A stretch of 64,000 nt of DNA. Origin: a marine bacterium B5-7. GTDB lineage: Bacteria; Pseudomonadota; Gammaproteobacteria; BQJM01. Below the pieces are notes generated by a model. That model made no database searches. It saw only the letters and a list, made by a program, of their open reading frames with translations, and was not told where the DNA came from. Below, piece by piece: positions 2,792 to 59,577 of the stretch (its first letter is position 1; each line of letters begins with the position of its first letter). Location: assembly GCA_021604705.1 (NCBI GenBank), contig BQJM01000001.1, positions 72,887 to 136,886 on the forward strand, read 5' to 3'. The translations under genes and the position numbers were made by a program.

Positions 2792-3742
2792 CTAATGGTT
2801 CTGGCGCCGTAGTTGCAGAACCTCAGCCACTTTAAACCCCGTGGCAGGATTGCGTTGGATAAACACGATTAAATCCACGGCTTGCTCGACAACAGAAATA
2901 GGTGCTGCGGGTAAAACTTCTTGGACTAAGTGATGTAAACGCAACAAGGTATCCTGTGCGCTATTAGCATGCACCGTGCAGATGCCGCCGGGATGACCCA
3001 TGTTCCACGCTTTTAACATCGCTAAGGCTGCACCATCGCGAACCTCTCCAATCACGATACGATCGGGGCGCATGCGTAAAGCACCTTTGACTAAGTCATG
3101 CATGGACTTGTTGGGAGAAGTGCATAATTTCACATGGTCAACAGCGGCAACTTGTAACTCAGGGACATCTTCAATCACGAGAATGCGTTCTTGCGTTTCT
3201 GTTAATTCAGCGAGCAGGGCATTGGTGAATGTGGTTTTACCTGAGCCCGTTCCACCAGCTACAATAATGTTTTGTTTATTCTGTATCGCGGTTTTTAATT
3301 GCTGGGATTGTTCGGCTGTCATTTGATTTGCACTGACATAATTGTCTAGAGAAAAAATTTGGCTGGCGGGTTTTCTTAGGGTAAAACAGGCTTCGCTCAC
3401 CACGGGGGGGAGCCAACCTTGAAAACGAATACCTATGTTCGGGATTTCACAGGCGAGCTCCGGATTGTTGGCATCAACGATCATGTGATGATGAGATGCT
3501 AGCAGTTTAATAATGTTTTCACGCTGCACGGTAGAAAGAATCACGGTTAGAGATTTTTTTCCGCGGGATAAATATTCTACCCAGACTTTTCCATCAGGGT
3601 TAACCAATACTTCCACGACGAGGGATTCTTGTAGTTCACGTGTGATGGCTTCCCCTAGGGCATGCTGCAGCAATGCTTGGAAACGATCTTGGCTACCGCC
3701 GTCACCCCGGGCTTGACCCGGGGTCTCCTTGCTATTCCCCAT
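2792..3742 (-). CDS. virB11: T4SS ATPase VirB11/TrbB
   Basis: Walker A GGTGSGKTT and the VirB11/CpaF architecture. It is the last gene of the virB operon. The N-terminal 15 codons are encoded by a REP element (3701..3728). Confidence 0.9.
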   Translation of the reverse strand: MGNSKETPGQARGDGGSQDRFQALLQHALGEAITRELQESLVVEVLVNPDGKVWVEYLSRGKKSLTVILSTVQRENIIKLLASHHHMIVDANNPELACEIPNIGIRFQGWLPPVVSEACFTLRKPASQIFSLDNYVSANQMTAEQSQQLKTAIQNKQNIIVAGGTGSGKTTFTNALLAELTETQERILVIEDVPELQVAAVDHVKLCTSPNKSMHDLVKGALRMRPDRIVIGEVRDGAALAMLKAWNMGHPGGICTVHANSAQDTLLRLHHLVQEVLPAAPISVVEQAVDLIVFIQRNPATGFKVAEVLQLRRQNH

Positions 3743-4820
3743 GACCTTTTCCCTGCTGCTTCATCTGCTTAAACGCATCACGAACCTGCGCTAGCGTTTT
3801 ATCTGATACACTTTTTAGGGTGTTGCGATCACGCTTCGATAAACCCGTATTAGCTTGTGATGTTTTCACCTGTACGGTGCTAGCTGCCGCTTGTGTTGCA
3901 TGGGCTGACAAGTGCGTGGCTTGTTGTACGGCCTGAGTTGCTTGTGCAACGGATGTAGGGGCTGCATGCATCGTGCTTGTCATGGCTTGTGCCGATGTTG
4001 TTGTGTTCACCACGGTAGTCGTACCAGAATCGGTTGCTGCGCCGGGGATCACCATTGTTCCTAAAAGATTACCCGCTAATTTCGGTAATTGATGTAATAA
4101 ATAAGCCAAAGCGAGGCTTGCAAGAAAAACACCCATCGCGAAATTAAAGGGATAAGGTGCAGCTAAACTAGGAATACGCAAATGCATCCATAGCCCGTAG
4201 GCTAAACCCCAAACAATCAGCATGGTGGCTAAACGGATCCCCATACTCAGTAAACTCTGAAATATCTGTGTCGACCAATGTTTAAAATGATGCAGCATAC
4301 TGAAAGGTAGTAATAACAAGCCAAACAAGCCTACCAAGTAAAAAGCCGCGTACTGCAAAACAATATTCAAAATCATCCAGCCGATGCTAAACAGCGTGCC
4401 AAAACCAATAATTAAATTAATGGCAGGGATTTTCAGTTGCGAAGCGCTGGTTTGCAGCGATTGGAAAACATGCGTGCTAAACATATACGCTAAGTCCCAT
4501 AGTTTCATGAGATGATGCGCACTGTCGGGTTGTTGATGTACATCTTGGCTGACTTGTAAGAAGCTAGCGAGTATCCAGTGTAAACCATCATTTAAATGAA
4601 AAATAACAAAGAACAAAAAGCTGAGTTTCATCACATCCAACAATAATTTTCGCCATTGCGGCTCTTGTTGAATAGCCCACAGTAAACCAAATAAGGCGAA
4701 TTCCATGCCGGAGAAAATATACAGTAAATGTAATGCGTATTGTGTTACGTGGCCGTAGCCATGCCTAATATGGTCGACAAGTTGTGTTTGTAATGTTTGT
4801 AAAATATTGGCATCTATCAT
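3732..4820 (-). CDS. virB6: T4SS inner-membrane protein VirB6/TrbL-like with a Ser/Thr/Ala/Gln-rich C-terminal tail
   Basis: About 250 aa of polytopic hydrophobic segments followed by a low-complexity hydrophilic tail. Sits between virB10 and virB11. The 4-nt ATGA overlap with virB10 suggests translational coupling. Confidence 0.6.
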   Translation of the reverse strand: MIDANILQTLQTQLVDHIRHGYGHVTQYALHLLYIFSGMEFALFGLLWAIQQEPQWRKLLLDVMKLSFLFFVIFHLNDGLHWILASFLQVSQDVHQQPDSAHHLMKLWDLAYMFSTHVFQSLQTSASQLKIPAINLIIGFGTLFSIGWMILNIVLQYAAFYLVGLFGLLLLPFSMLHHFKHWSTQIFQSLLSMGIRLATMLIVWGLAYGLWMHLRIPSLAAPYPFNFAMGVFLASLALAYLLHQLPKLAGNLLGTMVIPGAATDSGTTTVVNTTTSAQAMTSTMHAAPTSVAQATQAVQQATHLSAHATQAAASTVQVKTSQANTGLSKRDRNTLKSVSDKTLAQVRDAFKQMKQQGKGHGE

Positions 4821-6028
4821 GCGGATGCCAAAGCGTTAAGGTAAGGGGTGAGTACCATATCCTTATTGACGATGATGTTGAACGCATACCCAGCAGGAAT
4901 GACCAAGGTGGGTTGAATATTGATCGCACGATCAGTGAGTTGTTGTCCGACTTGCGATACGTTGCTTGCGACACCGATTGCTGCACCTTGGCCACTGCTG
5001 CGATAAAAATTGTTGTCATTACCATAGCTGTTGTCAGAAACAGCGCCGGTTCCTAAACTGAGTACAGAAGATAATACCGCAGCACCCATCACGCGCCCCC
5101 AGTGATTGTTCACACTACCTTGCATACCAGATTGACCGAACAGATCTGTTCCTTGTGCATTACTCAGTAGAATGGATTCACCATTTGGCATGATGATGCG
5201 TTTAAAGACGATAAGTACACGGGTTTGGCCATAAGCGACTTGCGAGTCGTATTGGCCGACTAAGCGAGAACCTTTAGGAATCAGCAGCGTATTGCCAGTG
5301 ACCGTATCGTATAAATCTTCATTTACTTGCGACACAATTTCGCCCGGTAAAGAGGTGTTCACCGCGGTGATGAGAATAGCGGGGATGATAGTGCCTGCTT
5401 GAATTTCATCAGGTGAGAGCGGTGTTTCTAAATGGTGTGTGTTATAAATATTTTTGGTATCTTCATCGTCACTTTCTTGCAAGAAGGCCAGTTTTTGTTT
5501 TTGCATGTTTTGTTGTACGTAGCGATTAACCCGCGTGTGTTTACTATGCTTGCCTTCATCGCTTGCTTTGTCTTTTTTGTCACTGGCGGCTGCGGTATTA
5601 GACGTTTTAATTTTCTTGCTAGGTGGCTGAATACCTGGGAAAAACATGACGCTGGTCGCCGCTTGTTTATCTGCTTGGCTGTGCACAGGTTGATGCTGCA
5701 ATTTTTCCTGCAAGGCAGCCAATTGTTTAGCAAGCGCAGCTTGTTGCGCACGCATCGCGCGCATGGCAGCACTATCGCCTGAGGGTTGCGGCGAGATATG
5801 TTGATAATCATTCGGCAGTTGTTCAATGACCGCAGATTTTTCAGGGGTGTTGTTATCATGCCATGCATTTTTCGTATGTGAATGATGAGATGGTGCCCGG
5901 AAGGCCGTAATTAGAACGACAGAAAAAACTAAAGCGGCCAGCCCAACTAAGAGAACGATAACCGTTTTGTTGATATGAGTAGGTTTGGGCGTAGGCGGCT
6001 TAATGTGAAAAGCTTCCTTGTCGCTCAT
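4817..6028 (-). CDS. virB10: T4SS protein VirB10/TrbI
   Basis: N-terminal TM segment, Pro/Gln-rich linker and a C-terminal TrbI/VirB10 domain (TIIPAILITAVNTSLPG...NTLLIPKGSRLVGQY). Confidence 0.9.
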   Translation of the reverse strand: MSDKEAFHIKPPTPKPTHINKTVIVLLVGLAALVFSVVLITAFRAPSHHSHTKNAWHDNNTPEKSAVIEQLPNDYQHISPQPSGDSAAMRAMRAQQAALAKQLAALQEKLQHQPVHSQADKQAATSVMFFPGIQPPSKKIKTSNTAAASDKKDKASDEGKHSKHTRVNRYVQQNMQKQKLAFLQESDDEDTKNIYNTHHLETPLSPDEIQAGTIIPAILITAVNTSLPGEIVSQVNEDLYDTVTGNTLLIPKGSRLVGQYDSQVAYGQTRVLIVFKRIIMPNGESILLSNAQGTDLFGQSGMQGSVNNHWGRVMGAAVLSSVLSLGTGAVSDNSYGNDNNFYRSSGQGAAIGVASNVSQVGQQLTDRAINIQPTLVIPAGYAFNIIVNKDMVLTPYLNALASA

Positions 6029-7023
6029 GATGTGCGTCTCGTAATTAACACGATGGTTGGATCGGATTGTCCCATGCGTAATTGTGCATGGCTGATTAAA
6101 CGATCGACTACATAAAAGTTGCCTTGCACGCGATAATTCGTGATCACCGGTTGATCGGCATTACCAACAAACAACACGGGTGCTTGTTGTAAATTGGCAG
6201 GGAATTGAATATAGGTTTTATGCCCATCAGAAAACACACCCGTTGGCATCCATGCGGGCGTTTCACCTTCATGGGCGACGGTGACATCGTAATGAAAATT
6301 TAAATGATTCACATCGATAGACGCTTGTTGGAAAAGCGGTTTTGTTGGTTGCGCATAATGTTTCACAAAATCCTGCGTATCGGCATAACGCCACCGAACG
6401 ATAGCCACGTATGTGTCATTCGTGGAGAGCAGTTGTAAATGGTAAGTACGACGATTAGTGGTGACCACAAGACTATTGTGAATAGCGGATTGTGTGGGCT
6501 TCACCAACAAATGCTGTTGCATACTGCTGCCAGCACCGCTAAAGGTTTTAGACACTTGCCAGCGCAGGGTATCACCTGCAGCCACTGAAGTGACGCGTTC
6601 ACCCGTTTGTAATTGAATGTCCGTGACATCCATGGGCGCACAATAAATTTTGAATAAAGAGCCTGGCACATAATCAAAGGTCATGATGGCATCTTGAAAA
6701 TGTTGTGTGTCGGGTTGCTGCTGTGCTTTTTTGTTGGCAGCTTGTACGGCTTGTTGGCCGACGACAGTAGATGTTGTTTTAGGTTTTGGCACACTCACCA
6801 TGTGTTCTGGCGTGACGCTTTGTATGCTGGGTTTTGGCAGGGTAGCCGGATTGATGGTTTGCACAACGGGTGCATTGACGGCGACGGCTGGCGCGTAAGC
6901 AACATCATCGCTTGATGATGCCATCGGCTCATGCATGCAAGCCGTTAAGCTCAACGCGAAGCAGCAGAGAATGAGTTTGTTATGTTGCATGATTATCGTT
7001 CCGCGTTGAAAAATGGAAGTCAC
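6025..7023 (-). CDS. virB9: T4SS protein VirB9/TrbG; predicted lipoprotein with a Pro/Ala-rich N-terminal extension
   Basis: VirB9/CagX domain in the C-terminal 220 aa. Signal peptide with lipobox LTAC (MQHNKLILCCFALSLTAC), so the true start may be the internal Met near 6990. A ~100 aa low-complexity linker lies between them. Confidence 0.85.
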   Translation of the reverse strand: MTSIFQRGTIIMQHNKLILCCFALSLTACMHEPMASSSDDVAYAPAVAVNAPVVQTINPATLPKPSIQSVTPEHMVSVPKPKTTSTVVGQQAVQAANKKAQQQPDTQHFQDAIMTFDYVPGSLFKIYCAPMDVTDIQLQTGERVTSVAAGDTLRWQVSKTFSGAGSSMQQHLLVKPTQSAIHNSLVVTTNRRTYHLQLLSTNDTYVAIVRWRYADTQDFVKHYAQPTKPLFQQASIDVNHLNFHYDVTVAHEGETPAWMPTGVFSDGHKTYIQFPANLQQAPVLFVGNADQPVITNYRVQGNFYVVDRLISHAQLRMGQSDPTIVLITRRTS

Positions 7024-7714
7024 TAATAAATAAACCCAATGGGTTTTTCATAATTTGTGCTTGAGAACCTGGTGTCGAGAAATGTAGCGTAAATACGCCA
7101 TTATAATCGACTGTGCTGACGTGCTTGTTGTTTAAATCGGTGGAGGTTTCTTGCCAGTCGATAGAATAAGTATGATCACTAATCGGATTGATATCTTGAA
7201 CTTTTACAACAACCGTTTTCTGGCCCAGTAATTTTTGTGGCGCAGACTTTCTCATATCTTCATTGAATAAGTGTGATCCGTGTTGCGTGAGGAAACTATA
7301 GGCGCGTAACCAGTTTTGTTTGGCCACAACGGGATCTAATGGTAAGGCACGCATGTCTTGTACAAACTGTCCGAGGAAATAAGTGATCTGTGCTTGATTT
7401 GGTGTGTAGTGGCGTTGCAGTGGTGCGACATTCACAACGCGACCGGCATGTGAAATTTCTGCGACGAATACTTTTAATTTACTGGTAGAGAGTTGCCAGC
7501 ACAATAAAGCGAGACTCGCGGCCGCCAATAGTAAGGATGCCAACGCGACAAGCCGCCAATTACGCGCTTGGACTTGTGCATGTCCAATACGCGTATCCCA
7601 GGTTTGTTGGGCGCGTTGATACGGGGTATCGCTTGCATCGCTAGGATAGGTTGGGATGTTTTCTTGAAAGGGTTTTTCGCTCATGCTTACTCTACTATTG
7701 ATTCCCATACCCAA
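6980..7714 (-). CDS. virB8: T4SS protein VirB8/TrbF
   Basis: Cytoplasmic N-terminus, one TM segment, periplasmic domain with the conserved NPLG motif near the C-terminus. Overlaps the virB4 stop. Confidence 0.8.
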   Translation of the reverse strand: MGMGINSRVSMSEKPFQENIPTYPSDASDTPYQRAQQTWDTRIGHAQVQARNWRLVALASLLLAAASLALLCWQLSTSKLKVFVAEISHAGRVVNVAPLQRHYTPNQAQITYFLGQFVQDMRALPLDPVVAKQNWLRAYSFLTQHGSHLFNEDMRKSAPQKLLGQKTVVVKVQDINPISDHTYSIDWQETSTDLNNKHVSTVDYNGVFTLHFSTPGSQAQIMKNPLGLFISDFHFSTRNDNHAT

Positions 7715-10173
7715 GCCAAGTCTTGTTGCGTTAAATAACGTTGCAAGAATTGTTGATAATCGTCTTGCTCATGCGCGGCTCTGACTGCGTGTTGGGCAGT
7801 TTTACTCGTGGCAGCGCAAAAAGCTTGGGCAACGACCCCCAATTCTACATCAAATAGTCGATTACCCAATCGGGACTGATAATAATATTGGCGTTTTGGG
7901 GTGGCATGGGCGAGATTGTTTAACTCACGTTCATTTAAGCCAAGTTCTGCGTAATGGGCTCGGACAGCGGGTTCTAAAGTGCGGTCGTTAGGTAAGAAAA
8001 TTCTCGCTGGGCAAGCTTCAAGTAGGGTGGATGCCAGTGAGCTTTCCAGTGCATCATCGACTGATTGTGTGGCGAAGACGACGCTGACATTGTGTTTCCG
8101 TAAAGTTTTCAACCACTCTCGGATTTTATCCGCGAAAATAGGATGGTCGAGAAATAGCCAGGCCTCATCTAGCACCAGTAAGGTTGGTTCGCCCGTTAAT
8201 TGTTTTTCCACCCGATGAAATAAGTAACTCAACGTCGGCGCGACGATGTTGGGTGTTTGCATCAGTGTTTCCATTTCAAAACATTGCCAATGGTTATCGA
8301 CGGTGGTCTCGTGATCGGCATCAAACAAATACCCATAGGCACCGGATAAAGTATAAGCCTGCAATGCTTGGCGCAATGCTTGGTGTTGTAATAGCGCGAC
8401 CAAACCGGTTAGCGTGCGCTGTGTTGCGGGCATTGCCGTGAGGGCTTGTAGCGCTTCCCAAATAGCTTGTTTTTCTTTTGGGGTGATAGTGATATTTTCG
8501 TGGGCGATTAAACCGAGCAACCATTCTTGTGCCCACAAACACGTGCTTTTATCGTCGATGTGACGTAAAGGTTGAAAGGCCATGGGGGTATCATCAGTTT
8601 TTCCTAATTCAAAATGTGCGCCATTAACGCCCCAAGTACTTGCAAGAAAACTGCCACCTTTATCAAAAATAAAAATATTGGCATTGGTGTAACGTCTAAA
8701 CTGCATGGCCATTAAAGTAAGTAAGACTGATTTTCCGGCGCCAGTTGGTCCCACAATAAAAGTATGACCGACATCACCGATGTGGTTCACTAAACGAAAC
8801 GGCGTGCGACCTTCAGAGTGCACCGTCATTAAAGGCGGTGCTTGTAAATGATCATCACGTTTAGGACCAGACCACACGGCGGACAATGGCATTAAGTGGG
8901 CGAGATTTAAGGTGTTTAATAGAGGTTTTCGCACATTCGCATAGGCTTGCCCCGGCAATGAGGATAACCAGGCTTCAACGGCATTATAGGTCTCAATAAT
9001 TGTTGTAAAGCCTAAACCATTAATTACGCGCTCGAGTAATTGTAATTGTGTATCAACTTCTGCTTGCGATTTTCCGCGGACAGTAATCGTTGTCGTGTAA
9101 TAACCAAAGGTGACTTGATCGTCGGCCAGTTCTTGTAAGGCCTCATCAACATCACGAGATTTTTGTATCGCTGAAGAATCGGTGAGTTGTGATTCTGTTT
9201 TGGTGAAAACTTCTTGTAACAACTGCAACATGCCTTTACGTTTCGCGAACCAACGTTGGCGATAACGCTTAAGCGTTTTCTCTGCATCGATTTTATCAAG
9301 GGGCATAAATCGTGTGACCCAGCGATAACGCATGGGCAAGTGATTGAGTTGATCAAGCAAGGCTGGCAAGGTGCTGGATGGAAAACTTAATACGGATAAA
9401 ACCCCTAAATGTTCTTCACCAAGTTTCGGTGCAAGACCTGCTAGCAAAGGCGTATCGGCTAAAAATGCATCGAGATACATCGGGTTTTCCGGTGTTTTGA
9501 CCGGATGATTCTTGCAAGAGATCGCTTGATGCAAGTAAGTCAGTGTTTCATCATCGCTGAGTGCCTCAGCTTCGTAACAAACATCTTGTAACAAATGTAA
9601 GATGCGTGTCACCGTGGCAGTAAAGTAATCGCGGACCTCATGTGAGTCTTCTTTTGTGTCGTCATCTGTTTTAGTAATAAACCAGCGTGACATTTTTTTA
9701 TGTGATTGCGAAGGAGGTAAGTATTGCAGCGTAATATAATAATCACTTTCAAACGAAGCATCCGCTTGCATGAAGCTTTCATTGCGTTCTGCATCAATTA
9801 GCCAGCTGATGGGATCAGGAAAGGCACTGTCATTTTTGCTGAAGGTGTAGGGGCGACGATTGGCTTCAATGTAAATAGCCCAGCCCGATCCTAAACGTTT
9901 TAATGCATTGTTGAGGCGTGCGCTTACTGTCACTAATTGTGTGTCGGTTGCAGAAGCAAGATCAGGACCACGGAAACGCAAAGTTTGTTGTAAGGACCCA
10001 TCCTTATTAAGGATAACGCCAGGCGCAATCAATGCAGCCCATGGTAGTAAATCGGCTAATTGGTCGGGGTGTTTTTTGTATTCCGTTAAATTAAACATGA
10101 TAAAACTTTTTCTTGCGTAGGCAGCGAATAAACACTTCAAAGAAATCGGGATCCCGTTTGGCAAGGATGACAC
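7687..10173 (-). CDS. virB4: T4SS ATPase VirB4/TrbE
   Basis: 828 aa with Walker A GPTGAGKS and a CagE/TrbE/VirB4 layout. Confidence 0.95.
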   Translation of the reverse strand: MSSLPNGIPISLKCLFAAYARKSFIMFNLTEYKKHPDQLADLLPWAALIAPGVILNKDGSLQQTLRFRGPDLASATDTQLVTVSARLNNALKRLGSGWAIYIEANRRPYTFSKNDSAFPDPISWLIDAERNESFMQADASFESDYYITLQYLPPSQSHKKMSRWFITKTDDDTKEDSHEVRDYFTATVTRILHLLQDVCYEAEALSDDETLTYLHQAISCKNHPVKTPENPMYLDAFLADTPLLAGLAPKLGEEHLGVLSVLSFPSSTLPALLDQLNHLPMRYRWVTRFMPLDKIDAEKTLKRYRQRWFAKRKGMLQLLQEVFTKTESQLTDSSAIQKSRDVDEALQELADDQVTFGYYTTTITVRGKSQAEVDTQLQLLERVINGLGFTTIIETYNAVEAWLSSLPGQAYANVRKPLLNTLNLAHLMPLSAVWSGPKRDDHLQAPPLMTVHSEGRTPFRLVNHIGDVGHTFIVGPTGAGKSVLLTLMAMQFRRYTNANIFIFDKGGSFLASTWGVNGAHFELGKTDDTPMAFQPLRHIDDKSTCLWAQEWLLGLIAHENITITPKEKQAIWEALQALTAMPATQRTLTGLVALLQHQALRQALQAYTLSGAYGYLFDADHETTVDNHWQCFEMETLMQTPNIVAPTLSYLFHRVEKQLTGEPTLLVLDEAWLFLDHPIFADKIREWLKTLRKHNVSVVFATQSVDDALESSLASTLLEACPARIFLPNDRTLEPAVRAHYAELGLNERELNNLAHATPKRQYYYQSRLGNRLFDVELGVVAQAFCAATSKTAQHAVRAAHEQDDYQQFLQRYLTQQDLAWVWESIVE

Positions 10174-20804: not shown

Positions 20805-20872
20805 TGGAGCCAGGGTCTCCTGAAGCCACTGCAGTACTAGATGGAGACCCCGGGTCAAGCCCGGGGTGACAG
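20805..20872. repeat. REP-like palindromic elements between secD and secF
   Basis: GGAGACCCCGGGTCAAGCCCGGGGTGACAG (inverse orientation) plus a partial copy. Confidence 0.85.
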
Positions 20873-22211: not shown

Positions 22212-22412
22212 ATGCTATCTGACAAGCATGAGGTAAGAGCAGCGAAGAAGGGCGATTTTTGTATAGATAATCACGTGGTGATTGAAATAGGCGGAAAGAA
22301 CAAAGGCTTTTCTCAAATTAAAGAACAATCTAATGCCTATCTAGCTTGCGATGATTTAGAAACAGGCCTTGGTAGCCGTATTCCGTTATGGTTGTTTGGG
22401 TTTTTGTATTGA
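22212..22412 (+). pseudogene. possible 3' remnant of a COG1373/DUF4143-type ATPase gene
   Basis: Short ORF ending ...VVIEIGGKNKG...IPLWLFGFLY, resembling C-termini of DUF4143 ATPases. REP elements lie on both sides and no N-terminal part is present. Confidence 0.3.
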
Positions 22413-22417
22413 GGTCG

Positions 22418-22519
22418 CTGTTATCCCAGAACTACCGCTGTCATCCCGCGCTTGACGCGGGATCTCCTGAAAGCACTACAGTAATAGATGGAGACCCCGG
22501 GTCAAGCCCGGGGTGACAG
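22418..22519. repeat. REP-like elements (2 to 3 copies)
   Basis: GCTGTCATCCCGCGCTTGACGCGGGATCTCC and GGAGACCCCGGGTCAAGCCCGGGGTGACAG. Confidence 0.9.
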
Positions 22520-22545: not shown

Positions 22546-23250
22546 CTAATCTTTTACTGAATAAGGCAACGCTTGCCAAGTCATTGCAACCTCATGCAAG
22601 AAAAGGGGCGTCTCAAGCGCCGCATCTTTCACGACGCACAATGCTTGTTCGCCATCAGACAGAACCACTTTTCCAACAGCTTGCTGTTGATCATTCATCA
22701 CGACATCACCAGGTGTTGCAGAAACAACAACAGCCGCACATCGCATATGCTGTTTGATTTTCCCTAAGAAATGCATGCGCGCAACAATCTCTTGGCCGAT
22801 GTAACAACCTTTATTAAAACTGACAGCACCTAGGCTCGGTAAATTAATATCGTGCGGCGTGAATTGTTCGCTGGTTTCAGGAAAAATTTCAGGGATCCCT
22901 TGCTGGATGAGTTCCGCGACGCTGTTATCCTGTGCGCTACCACTGTCACCCCGCACTTGATGCGGGGTCTCCTTATCGATCACCGCGATACGAACCTTCG
23001 CACGTAACATGAATTTCTTAAGATTATTCATAGCTGTTTCTGCCAATGCACTGGGCACGCGCAATACAAAGCCATCGTCACGTTTCAACACACGCCACAA
23101 ACTCACGACGCGCCCTTTAGGATTACAATGTGCAGCCAGCACATCTTCGCCCACGGCAAGTGCAGCGATATCTGCTGTTAATTGCCCTTGCAGAAAGGTT
23201 TCTGTATCTTCACCTTCGCAGTGATAGTGGGTGTATGGAATGATTGACAT
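22546..23250 (-). CDS. ygfZ: tRNA-modifying folate-binding protein YgfZ
   Basis: KGCYIGQE motif. Divergent to sdhE-ygfX as in E. coli. Carries an in-frame REP insertion at 22943..22972. Confidence 0.85.
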   Translation of the reverse strand: MSIIPYTHYHCEGEDTETFLQGQLTADIAALAVGEDVLAAHCNPKGRVVSLWRVLKRDDGFVLRVPSALAETAMNNLKKFMLRAKVRIAVIDKETPHQVRGDSGSAQDNSVAELIQQGIPEIFPETSEQFTPHDINLPSLGAVSFNKGCYIGQEIVARMHFLGKIKQHMRCAAVVVSATPGDVVMNDQQQAVGKVVLSDGEQALCVVKDAALETPLFLHEVAMTWQALPYSVKD

Positions 23251-23336
23251 AATAAGCTCTCCTATTATTTCGCATTCTACGTGAAAGCGATGAAGGGTGT
23301 CACCCTAGTATGCAAACTGCTGTGATGGGATAAGGC

Positions 23337-23436
23337 GGGATCGGATATCTTTTTCAAAAACCGTCGGCGGCAGGGATAGCCGCCGTCGAGCTACAGGGAT
23401 GTATTTATGCGTGTTTTTGGAAGAGATATCGGATCC
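23337..23436. repeat. MITE-like element, family B, copy 1
   Basis: About 20-bp terminal inverted repeats (GGATCGGATATCTTTTTCAAAAACC ... GTTTTTGGAAGAGATATCGGATCC) flank a hairpin core CGGCGGCAGGGATAGCCGCCG. Confidence 0.8.
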
Positions 23437-27638: not shown

Positions 27639-28016
27639 CTGTCACCCCGCACTTGATGCTTGTCATTCCAGAAAATGCGTAAGCATTTTTCTGGAATCTA
27701 GATCCCAGACATTTTCCTTTGGAAAATTCTGGGATGACATCTGCACGGCATGATACAGAACACTGTCACCCCGCACTTGATGCGGGGTCTCCTGCTAACA
27801 CTGTTGTTGCCACTGTCACCCCGCATTTGATGCTTGTCATTCCAGAAAATGCGTAAGCATTTGTCTGGAATCTAGATCCCAGACATTTTCCTTTGGAAAA
27901 TTCTGGGATGACATCTGCACGGCATGATACAGAACACTGTCACCCCGCACTTGATGCGGGGTCTCCATCTATTACCGCAGTGTCATCAGGAGATACCGCA
28001 TCAAGCACGGCATGAC
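27639..28016. repeat. compound REP array with a ~175-bp tandem duplication and nested element subtypes
   Basis: The unit CTGTCACCCCGCACTTGATGC-[TTGTCATTCCAGAAAATGCGTAAGCATTTKTCTGGAATC]-...-CTGTCACCCCGCACTTGATGCGGGGTCTCC occurs twice, at 27639..27800 and 27815..27966. Confidence 0.9.
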
Positions 28017-28087
28017 GTGGGACTATTTTATCGCCAGTCGCTAAAATAGTCATTCATGCGGCACTTTAAATCCTTGATGAGCCTGGG

Positions 28088-28182
28088 AGGGGATTTCTTT
28101 CGAAAACCGTCGGCGGCAGGGATAGCCGCCGTCGAGCTCCAGGGATGGATTTATGCGTGTTTTTGAAAGAGATACCCGACTG
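28088..28182. repeat. MITE-like element, family B, copy 2
   Basis: About 90% identical to copy 1 (TTTCGAAAACCGTCGGCGGCAGGGATAGCCGCCGTCGAGCTCCAGGGATGGATTTATGCGTGTTTTTGAAAGAGATACCC). Confidence 0.8.
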
Positions 28183-28221
28183 GGCTTCTAATGATGATTT
28201 GATCGCTAGTCGCTTAAACAA

Positions 28222-59238: not shown

Positions 59239-59243
59239 CCTTA

Positions 59244-59577
59244 TTGTCACCCTGGAAAACTACTTGTCATCCTGGCCACCGCTGTCATCCCGCACTTGAT
59301 GCGGGATCCCCATCTATTACCATAGCGTCAACGCTGTCATCCCGCACTTGATGCGGGATCCCCGTCTAGTACCATAGCGTCAACGCTGTCATCCCGCACT
59401 TGATGCGGGATCCCCATCTATTACCATAGCGTCAACGCTGTCATCCCGCACTTGATGCGGGATCCCCATCTATTACCAATGTCATTCCGGCGAAAGCCGG
59501 AATCTCCTGATAGTACTGCGGTACTAGTTAGAGACCCCGGGTCAAGCCCGGGGTGACAGCAGTAAGTGGAATGACAG
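59244..59577. repeat. REP array including a 52-bp tandem repeat (3.7 copies, 59281..59470)
   Basis: Unit GCTGTCATCCCGCACTTGATGCGGGATCCCCATCTATTACCATAGCGTCAAC repeated head-to-tail, followed by TTCCGGCGAAAGCCGGAATCTCC and GAGACCCCGGGTCAAGCCCGGGGTGACAG variants. Confidence 0.9.

Follow-up and report, generated by a model that had tools for sequence, protein, structure and literature searches.

Can a copy of a repeated hairpin come to lie in the middle of a gene and leave that gene open, and if so, how does it arrive there? This question is raised by a 64,000-nt stretch of DNA (the window) from the metagenome-assembled genome (MAG) of marine bacterium B5-7, an unclassified and uncultured gammaproteobacterium; a literature search on this bacterium as an organism found nothing. 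Inside the housekeeping gene ygfZ of the window lies the 30-mer CTGTCACCCCGCACTTGATGCGGGGTCTCC, at 22943-22972. The reading frame is unbroken and contains no stop codon at this point, exactly as a preliminary description of the locus, made from the letters alone, had claimed. Based on the results presented below, it is highly likely that a hairpin of the CGTC repetitive extragenic palindrome (REP) class, which is also the class of the Ssn-related motif (SRM), was inserted in frame into the linker between the two halves of YgfZ and has been carried there as a near-neutral passenger.

The ygfZ gene and its repeated hairpin

The host open reading frame (ORF) is a short-form YgfZ. It matches NCBIfam NF007110 in two stretches, the best of which covers residues 10-93, and TIGR03317 at residues 115-206 (91.5 bits, cut-off 49); this best stretch and the TIGR03317 match flank the insert on opposite sides. 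Both the folate-binding GcvT-like fold and the K-G-C-Y-x-G-Q-E motif are present. The top Foldseek matches of the predicted model are E. coli YgfZ 1NRK/1VLY (TM 0.83, E 1e-20), and the KGCYIGQE motif, described earlier as intact, is indeed so at residues 147-154, in invariant columns of the homologue alignment. The NCBI name for the identical protein of this MAG is likewise YgfZ. On the sense strand, the insert and its junctions (slashes) read AAG/GAG ACC CCG CAT CAA GTG CGG GGT GAC AGT GGT AGC/GCA, and the translation runs ...IAVIDK-ETPHQVRGDSGS-AQDNS..., with the insert encoding ETPHQVRGD(SGS); the hairpin core accounts for E94-S103. The insert (residues 94-105) ends approximately 42 residues upstream of KGCYIGQE, and the distance of 80-90 residues given in the preliminary description is wrong.

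The segment is one member of a repeat family in the window. Its exact 30-mer recurs at 27763 and 27937, both intergenic (30/30 identical). At three or fewer mismatches, 8 sites are found in the window, and 17 are found with a degenerate pattern, compared to none in 100 shuffles; exact matches to the SRM motif number 14, compared to a mean of 0.1 in 30 dinucleotide shuffles. Because shuffled sequence yields so few matches, membership of the family is beyond chance. With a looser scan, approximately 22 copies are recognized in 64 kb, 18 of them intergenic. Read tag-first on the plus strand, the ygfZ copy is composed of a C-TGTC tag, an 8-bp stem (ACCCCGCA/TGCGGGGT), a CTTGA loop and a CTCC tail. 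As single-stranded DNA (ssDNA), it folds into the 8-bp stem with a free energy of -10 kcal/mol (z -3.9), and 0/200 shuffles fold as well; the mRNA strand also retains a strong hairpin. Common to the copies are the unpaired C-TGTC tag, an 8-bp stem of the form AYCCCGNN/NNCGGGRT, the CTTGA loop and a CTC(C) tail. Three copies (3699, 27989 and 37517) have a CGTC tag instead of TGTC. The 5-nt CTTGA loop is found in nearly all copies, and a 4-nt GAAA loop is found at 59480-59507. At the variable stem positions, the changes are compensatory (CA/TG, GG/CC, GC/GC, CG/CG and GA/TC). Furthermore, copies are paired in inverted orientation across a 22-nt spacer at 22438/22490, 27937/27989 and 59480/59530. 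Rfam, searched at gathering thresholds, returned a tRNA and a TPP (thiamine pyrophosphate) riboswitch and no match to the hairpin, and when older, decayed copies within genes were sought by a generic hairpin scan, no convincing further case emerged. A CRISPR-like interpretation was considered for the four copies spaced 52 bp apart and rejected, since the "spacers" are identical in sequence and the array is a tandem repeat. Long-stem relatives of the element were also seen as inverted pairs at 27656-27740, 27831-27915 and 37320-37395; they have the same TGTCATYCC...GGRATCT ends, AT-rich stems of approximately 10-12 bp and GTAA or TTT loops, and at two places they are nested within a truncated standard copy.

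An addition of about 10 residues had first been proposed. The extra residues are real, and the size needs correction. A 36-nt (12-codon) unit, GAGACC...GAC-RGY-GGT-AGC, encoding ETPxQxRGDxGS, is common to ygfZ and to the second host gene, trbB, and the unit inserted into ygfZ is probably 51-54 nt (17-18 codons; residues 94-110 or 94-111), because a decayed partial head and a spacer precede the hairpin. This preceding segment encodes (S)GSAQDN(S) and, together with the core, gives 51 nt or 17 codons. The putative head matches CTGTCATCCCGCAC at 10/14 positions, and all of the differences are transitions. In the flank of the intergenic copy at 22438 (22413-22437), the same 11-nt block, CGCTGTTATCC, is followed by CTACC at the same offset. 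Among the matches listed from other phyla (see below), a partial head lies 16-25 nt upstream of a full hairpin in 22/151 copies, from 17/119 loci, with a sharp positional peak. Such truncated heads contain the tag, the 5' half-stem and the loop without the 3' half, and further examples in the window lie at 59240-59290, 27639-27668 and 27813-27842. No description of this arrangement turned up in literature searches, which were not aimed at it; the arrangement may bear on how the element is copied.

Insertion into the linker and tolerance of the insert

By comparing YgfZ with its best 120 homologues, the polarity of the change can be read: the extra segment was gained. The element-type peptide is present in the source protein and in P0002 (84% identity) alone and is missing in 118 of the 120. 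The indel expected by the preliminary description is thus confined to the source and one close relative, and distant orthologues with the same segment, which would have pointed to ancestral sequence, were not found among these homologues. The locus of P0002 (L001) comes from an independent metagenome assembly of a different sample and carries the identical 30-mer at the same codon. There, the 30-mer is followed by 42 extra bases that constitute a partial tandem duplication of the 3' half of the element, with a 17-nt direct repeat of element sequence, GGGGTGACAGTGGTAGC, at its boundaries; the inverted pair downstream of ygfZ is present in L001 as well. On the other hand, P0003 (52% identity; locus L002) has a short unrelated linker at the site, and no element copy was found anywhere in the 20.7 kb of L002. 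The gene order secF-ygfZ-sdhE-lepA is kept in both loci. A scan of JGI metagenomes for close YgfZ relatives found none. Judged from these alignments, the ygfZ segment is an inserted copy of the repeated hairpin of the window, not ancestral sequence. Because the copy is present in L001 and missing in L002, the insertion dates to the interval after the split from the L002 lineage (52%) and before the split from the L001 lineage (84%). A separate observation concerns the neighbourhood of the inverted pair downstream of ygfZ: a 66-aa ORF beside it (22212-22412) looks like what is left of the 3' end of an AAA_14/DUF4143 ATPase gene. In L001 and L002, an intact version of this gene adjoins ygfZ, which suggests that a gene has decayed at this site rich in repeats.

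The placement of the insert in the protein, for which a structural model had been suggested in the preliminary description, is clear from an AlphaFold model built on 24 homologues. The model is confident (mean predicted local distance difference test score (pLDDT) 90.2, predicted template modelling score (pTM) 0.87), and its sole segment with pLDDT below 50 is residues 95-106, that is, the insert, in a loop between strand 86-91 and helix 111-116. According to this model, the insert would form a hydrophilic, Pro/Gly-containing, disordered surface loop (ETPHQVRGDSGS...) that leaves the fold undisturbed. The probable 51-54-nt unit coincides with the disordered loop (residues 93-110) and fills most of the interval between the end of the best NF007110 stretch (93) and the start of the TIGR03317 match (115). 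Between the window and L001, the synonymous divergence (dS) of ygfZ is 0.40 and the nonsynonymous divergence (dN) is 0.064; because dN/dS is 0.16, the gene has continued under purifying selection with the insert present.

Class of the repeat and its other copies

By its sequence, the element can be assigned to the CGTC/TGTC-tagged REPs, the same class as the SRM. CGTC REPs have a CGTC tag, often TGTC, stems of 8-9 bp starting with A/T, loops of 4-5 nt and a short 3-nt tail that is mostly CCA; they occur in several phyla, including in Coxiella, Rickettsia, Wolbachia and Neisseria, "apparently lacking a dedicated transposase", and intragenic copies are documented, including the R. conorii elements RPE-4 and RPE-6, which equal CGTC-4 and CGTC-1 (Di Nocera 2013, BMC Genomics 14:522). 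The SRM is defined as HGTCWY N0-2 YYVSBRH N0-5 WNVSBRG N0-2 RNCYNB; it is the target of small single-domain GIY-YIG nucleases (cd10448), which bind and cleave it in ssDNA only, a few nucleotides 5' of the tag, and the Ssn genes are frequently flanked by SRM in an insertion-sequence-like manner (Nat Commun 2025;16:2388). The window copies resemble the CGTC-2 type (Di Nocera 2013) in their unpaired CGTC/TGTC tag, in their 8-bp stem, whose first pair is A:T in all of them, in their 5-nt loop (with the 4-nt GAAA variant) and in their short unpaired tail. They are also multicopy, mostly intergenic, arranged in inverted pairs and found in frame within genes, with no adjacent transposase in the window, as is the case for CGTC REPs. 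They differ from CGTC REPs in the tail, which is CTC(C) instead of the consensus CCA; in the second stem pair, which is often C:G (in the ygfZ copy too) and T:A in other window copies; and in the host, which is an uncultured gammaproteobacterium, while the published descriptions concern mainly Alphaproteobacteria. Moreover, ygfZ is not among the host genes listed for CGTC REPs (Di Nocera 2013). Similarly, the exact match to the degenerate motif, the strong enrichment and the ssDNA hairpin are shared with the SRM and the Neisseria Transformation Sequence, and the difference from the Ssn-SRM system is that the 64-kb window yielded no Ssn gene. The word "intragenic" has 0 occurrences in the searched text of the SRM paper (Nat Commun 2025;16:2388).

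Other short palindromic repeats offer partial parallels. Small GC-rich hairpins with an unpaired tetranucleotide tag, inverted pairs and a presumed ssDNA-based spread are also features of the GTAG REPs and REPINs, whose tag is GTAG and not TGTC/CGTC; no RAYT was found among the window ORFs of at least 120 aa. Rickettsia palindromic elements (RPEs) were reportedly described by Ogata and colleagues (2000, 2002) as in-frame inserts of numerous unrelated genes in a host-associated bacterium. Like the element studied here, they are palindromic repeats translated in frame into extra segments compatible with the protein fold; unlike it, they belong to a different lineage, and RPE-1 measures about 100-150 bp compared to the 36-54 nt of the present unit. 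QMITE1 and QMITE2 come from Coxiella burnetii, a host-associated gammaproteobacterium of a related lineage; they overlap ORFs or make them longer, in some cases in frame (Wachter et al. 2018). However, the QMITEs are 150-400 bp long with terminal inverted repeats and direct repeats, QMITE2 carries a GTAG REP, and they are a different element. A MITE (a miniature transposable element with inverted repeats; a non-autonomous DDE transposon) was considered for the present repeat and rejected, as there are neither terminal inverted repeats nor a target-site duplication.

Three further genic copies lie in the window, and all four have the same orientation and the same frame; read from the sequence, 4/6 frames of the element are stop-free. 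The copy in trbB bears out the earlier statement that a near-identical peptide (ETPGQARGDGGS) had been added, in the same orientation and frame, to a type IV secretion system (T4SS) ATPase. The identification of that ATPase as VirB11 holds for the family, and the protein itself is the P-type TrbB (TIGR02782, 345.7 bits, above the cut-off). Its element begins 4 nt past the stop codon of the upstream trbL-like gene. The possibility that this copy lies upstream of the true start was rejected: removal of the 12 residues gives MGNSK/QDRFQALL..., whose N-terminal length equals that of 36 homologues (MSEKKSTERHLDML...), no other plausible start is found ahead of the conserved region, and the NCBI annotation includes the insert. 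On this sequence evidence, the trbB copy is an in-frame N-terminal insertion. The other two copies lie in an orphan ORF (59593..61593, minus strand) of 666 aa, annotated at NCBI as a 644-aa hypothetical protein, and the flank of the decaying copy at 60239 retains the 22-nt spacer typical of inverted pairs. The single homologue of the orphan protein, P0122 (35% identity), has both element copies at the same positions. The two proteins were also observed to be near-identical around both element segments and at the C-terminus (KSYFFSSKPDTLGKLLEAEASKLRPGNR), a mosaic that might stem from recombination close to the repeats or from conservation of a C-terminal signal.

By scanning one genome per species for TGTCAYCCCGNNCTTGANNCGGGRTCTC, the same hairpin was found at no fewer than 120 loci (L003-L122 were fetched) in Actinomycetota, Spirochaetota, Fibrobacterota, Bacteroidota, Elusimicrobiota, phyla of the candidate phyla radiation (CPR), Alpha- and Gammaproteobacteria and others. 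Because the hairpin is found across so many phyla, the element is not clade-specific; the published family to which it belongs is pan-bacterial. The following statements apply to the matches listed. The GC content of the genomes spans 24-74%, and in almost every one of 137 matches, the bases at the two free stem positions complement each other. The open frames that run through the hairpin are real genes, and the element is mostly interdomain (Table 1). Eleven of the 12 validated internal copies, window included, are tail-first, mostly in the frame E[TI]PxQxR[GD]D, and the copy in panC is tag-first; in the tail-first orientation, the template strand is the tag-first (Ssn-cleavable) one. A strict orientation rule was rejected in favour of a trend, as panC of L030 and published cases are opposite. 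In addition, three loci (L014, L047 and L051) contain, no more than 100 bp from the hairpin, an Ssn-like single-domain GIY-YIG ORF of 95-113 aa, and they independently reproduce the published Ssn-SRM association.

Table 1. Positions of the host genes, element copies and associated ORFs in the window and in loci of other species
Feature	Position	Strand	Remarks
ygfZ, host gene	22546..23250	-	Short-form folate-binding YgfZ/CAF17, 234 aa; profiles, homologues, model, fold match
Hairpin core in ygfZ (CGTC/TGTC-tagged REP = SRM)	22943..22972	+	Exact SRM match at 22944-22972
Probable rest of the ygfZ inserted unit	22922..22942	+	Decayed partial head CTGTTATCCTGTGC and spacer GCTACCA
Inverted pair just downstream of ygfZ stop	22438..22519	22438-22467 +, 22490-22519 -	22-nt spacer
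Intergenic cluster	27639..28018	.	2 full copies equal to the ygfZ copy (27763, 27937); also truncated heads 27639 and 27813, inverted CGTC-tagged copy 27989, long-stem variants
Intergenic cluster	37436..37610	.	Four full or degenerate copies
Intergenic cluster	59282..59559	.	Four tandem copies at 52-bp spacing; also GAAA-loop variant 59480-59507, inverted copy 59530-59559
Single intergenic copy	12195..12224	+	Pattern scan
Single intergenic copy between secD and secF	20843..20872	-	Pattern scan and SRM match
trbB, second host gene	2792..3742	-	P-type conjugative transfer ATPase, VirB11 family, 316 aa; TIGR02782
Element copy in trbB	3699..3728	+	CGTC-tagged; in frame after codon 5; 36-nt unit encodes ETPGQARGDGGS
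Element copy in orphan ORF	59987..60016	+	In frame, encodes EIPDQVRDDR
Decaying element copy, same orphan ORF	60239..60268	+	In frame, encodes EIPAQDQDDS
carB (Rhodobacterales LSUCC0031)	L044 2099-5539		Element at residue 457, between ATP-grasp and oligomerisation domains
panC (Coriobacteriia)	L030 5317-6231		Element at residue 114; tag-first
GT4 glycosyltransferase	L095		Element between two Rossmann halves
Radical-SAM/HemN-like enzyme	L015		Element between domains
Secretin	L092		Element after STN domain
DEAD helicase	L074		Element C-terminal to helicase core
PP-loop ATPase	L088		Element within domain, splitting it
Protein sorted by the type IX secretion system (T9SS)	L054		Element within C-terminal sorting domain
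Ssn-like GIY-YIG ORF, Treponema MAG	L014 1323-1661		Adjoins hairpin
Ssn-like GIY-YIG ORF, alphaproteobacterial MAG	L047 4356-4640		Adjoins hairpin
Ssn-like GIY-YIG ORF, Mesoaciditogaceae MAG	L051 6013-6327		Adjoins hairpin

Arrival of the copy and alternative explanations

On the explanation favoured here, a copy of the hairpin would have entered the linker between the two halves of short-form ygfZ as a unit with a length divisible by three (no shorter than 36 nt and, with the decayed head and spacer counted, probably 51-54 nt). Entry in one of the four stop-free frames would keep the gene open, and the copy would then persist as a passenger that is neutral or nearly so, having been filtered by frame and by structural tolerance. 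It may have arrived by an ssDNA process acting on the hairpin, most plausibly with a small GIY-YIG nuclease of the Ssn type; by analogy with the published system, this route is the most likely mode of arrival. Several points weigh against this account. No empty-site allele was found, and the nearest insert-free orthologue, at 52%, is too diverged for the exact boundaries to be placed. No target-site duplication is seen: the junctions GATAAG/GAGACC...GGTAGC/GCACAG (ygfZ) and AGCAAG/GAGACC...GGTAGC/CAAGAT (trbB) are without a direct repeat. The length of the linker is naturally variable among YgfZ homologues, and part of the extra length could be native. A profile search of the window ORFs of at least 40 aa found no Ssn, RAYT or other transposase, and an Ssn homologue was found neither in the window nor in L001, L002, L123 or L124. 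Finally, what the literature shows for Ssn is limited to binding, cleavage and an effect on transformation, and includes no role in the spread of repeats (Nat Commun 2025;16:2388). The earlier proposal that the elements transpose into coding sequence and are tolerated there is therefore retained for insertion and for tolerance, and not for transposition, given that no empty site, target-site duplication or mobilising enzyme was found.

The variable linker length would also suit a native YgfZ linker that merely resembles the repeat or was the source of its family, and the presence of the segment in the L001 orthologue agrees with this. This reading is nevertheless barely credible and is refuted by four observations: unrelated intergenic copies match at 30/30 positions, the segment is one of the 14 exact SRM matches where 0.1 are expected, 118 of 120 homologues lack it, and the same hairpin occurs in other phyla. 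A repeat-induced chimera in the assembly could be suspected because the source is a MAG and short-read contigs from the same sample break at repeat clusters; it deserves hardly any credence, as the two halves of YgfZ follow each other collinearly, and in frame, on either side of the element and the synteny of secF-ygfZ-sdhE-lepA is conserved, and it is in effect ruled out because L001, assembled independently from a different sample, has the identical element at the same codon. Concerning these contigs, two from the same organism (L123 and L124; Logan assembly, run DRR328265) end at repeat clusters, L124 at the 59.2-59.6 kb cluster, and therefore hairpin arrays fragment assemblies. Another reading is that usefulness explains the retention of the insert, which could serve as an RGD-containing surface peptide, as an mRNA hairpin modulating ygfZ expression or as a place where cleavage by Ssn restricts recombination of the gene. 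The window and L001 agree at all 36 bases of the element, against differences at 12% of sites in the gene, and the strong hairpin of the mRNA strand and the skew of 11 tail-first copies to 1 tag-first copy point in the same direction. However, 80/670 of the 36-nt windows of ygfZ (12%) are equally identical, the element lies within a 76-nt identical run, and extra constraint on the element (P about 0.01) was rejected, as divergence along the gene is uneven. In addition, the intragenic copy at 60239 is visibly decaying, published lists contain both orientations, and the loop is a disordered part of a linker that varies in length; usefulness is thus very doubtful.

With regard to the route of arrival, a classical REP or REPIN of the GTAG type, mobilised by a RAYT (an IS200/IS605-like Y1 transposase), would have a similar size, a GC-rich hairpin and inverted pairs with a short spacer, and GGTAG adjoins some copies. 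These GTAG-like bases are on the wrong side and strand of an element whose tag is TGTC/CGTC, no Y1 transposase is found among the window ORFs, and the fit to the CGTC family and the SRM motif is exact, by which the GTAG reading is largely refuted and its probability very small. A more serious alternative, still clearly less probable than not, is that host processes acting on hairpin DNA (gene conversion, illegitimate recombination, template switching or fork slippage) produced the copy. The window contains no mobilising gene, no target-site duplication is seen, L001 has a 42-nt partial tandem duplication with 17-nt direct repeats of a kind typical of slippage, truncated heads in tandem with full copies are common, and no dedicated transposase of CGTC REPs was found by Di Nocera 2013 (BMC Genomics 14:522). 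On the other hand, near-identical hairpins stand beside Ssn-type genes in distant phyla, which favours a specific protein partner, and the conserved unpaired tag, loop and tail together with the covarying stems point to recognition by a protein. Slippage or gene conversion by the host remains a serious alternative for the origin of copies. A more specific scenario, which is rather improbable and in which the junctions and the orientation bias of genic copies would be informative, would take as the mobile unit a partial head, a spacer of approximately 7 nt and the hairpin (36-54 nt, a multiple of three in all surviving genic copies), copied in as a single strand in an Ssn-dependent manner and persisting only where transcription hides the cleavable strand. 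If this were true, ygfZ, carB and panC would carry built-in ssDNA break sites that shape single-gene recombination and transformation.

In general, the ygfZ case is a further example of a known phenomenon that involves a known, widespread repeat class: the tolerance of palindromic repeats in genes has been known since the RPEs of Rickettsia and was catalogued for CGTC REPs in 2013. What it contributes is the placement of a repeat of an uncultured, T4SS-bearing gammaproteobacterium in the CGTC-REP/SRM class, which joins the literature on REPs in genes to that on the Ssn nucleases of 2025. The insertions in ygfZ and trbB are clean, datable and in frame in a 36-nt register, and their junctions could help to define how the element is copied. 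The location of the insert in a length-variable interdomain loop of a confident model favours the idea that structural tolerance determines survival.

A second, unrelated repeat of approximately 95 nt was also observed in two copies (approximately 23335-23435 and 28085-28185) with an identical 35-nt core, AAACCGTCGGCGGCAGGGATAGCCGCCGTCGAGCT. Its ends resemble inverted repeats of approximately 23 nt, as in a MITE, it has no Rfam match, and one of its copies lies in the divergent ygfZ/sdhE promoter region. Among the window ORFs of at least 120 aa, Pfam recognizes housekeeping genes, a P-type T4SS and a Fic protein, and the rest are many orphans. The T4SS is chromosomal (trbB, L, I, G, F and E; 2792-10173), the Fic-domain protein is encoded at 41281-42828, large orphan ORFs without Pfam hits lie at 12310-13494, 31559-39175 and 61658-63181, and the loci of relatives encode ankyrin-repeat proteins. 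Together, the T4SS, the Fic protein, the orphans and the ankyrin proteins of relatives suggest a host-associated lifestyle like that of Legionellales or Coxiellales, and such a lifestyle is common to the hosts rich in CGTC REPs, namely, Rickettsia, Wolbachia, Coxiella and Neisseria.

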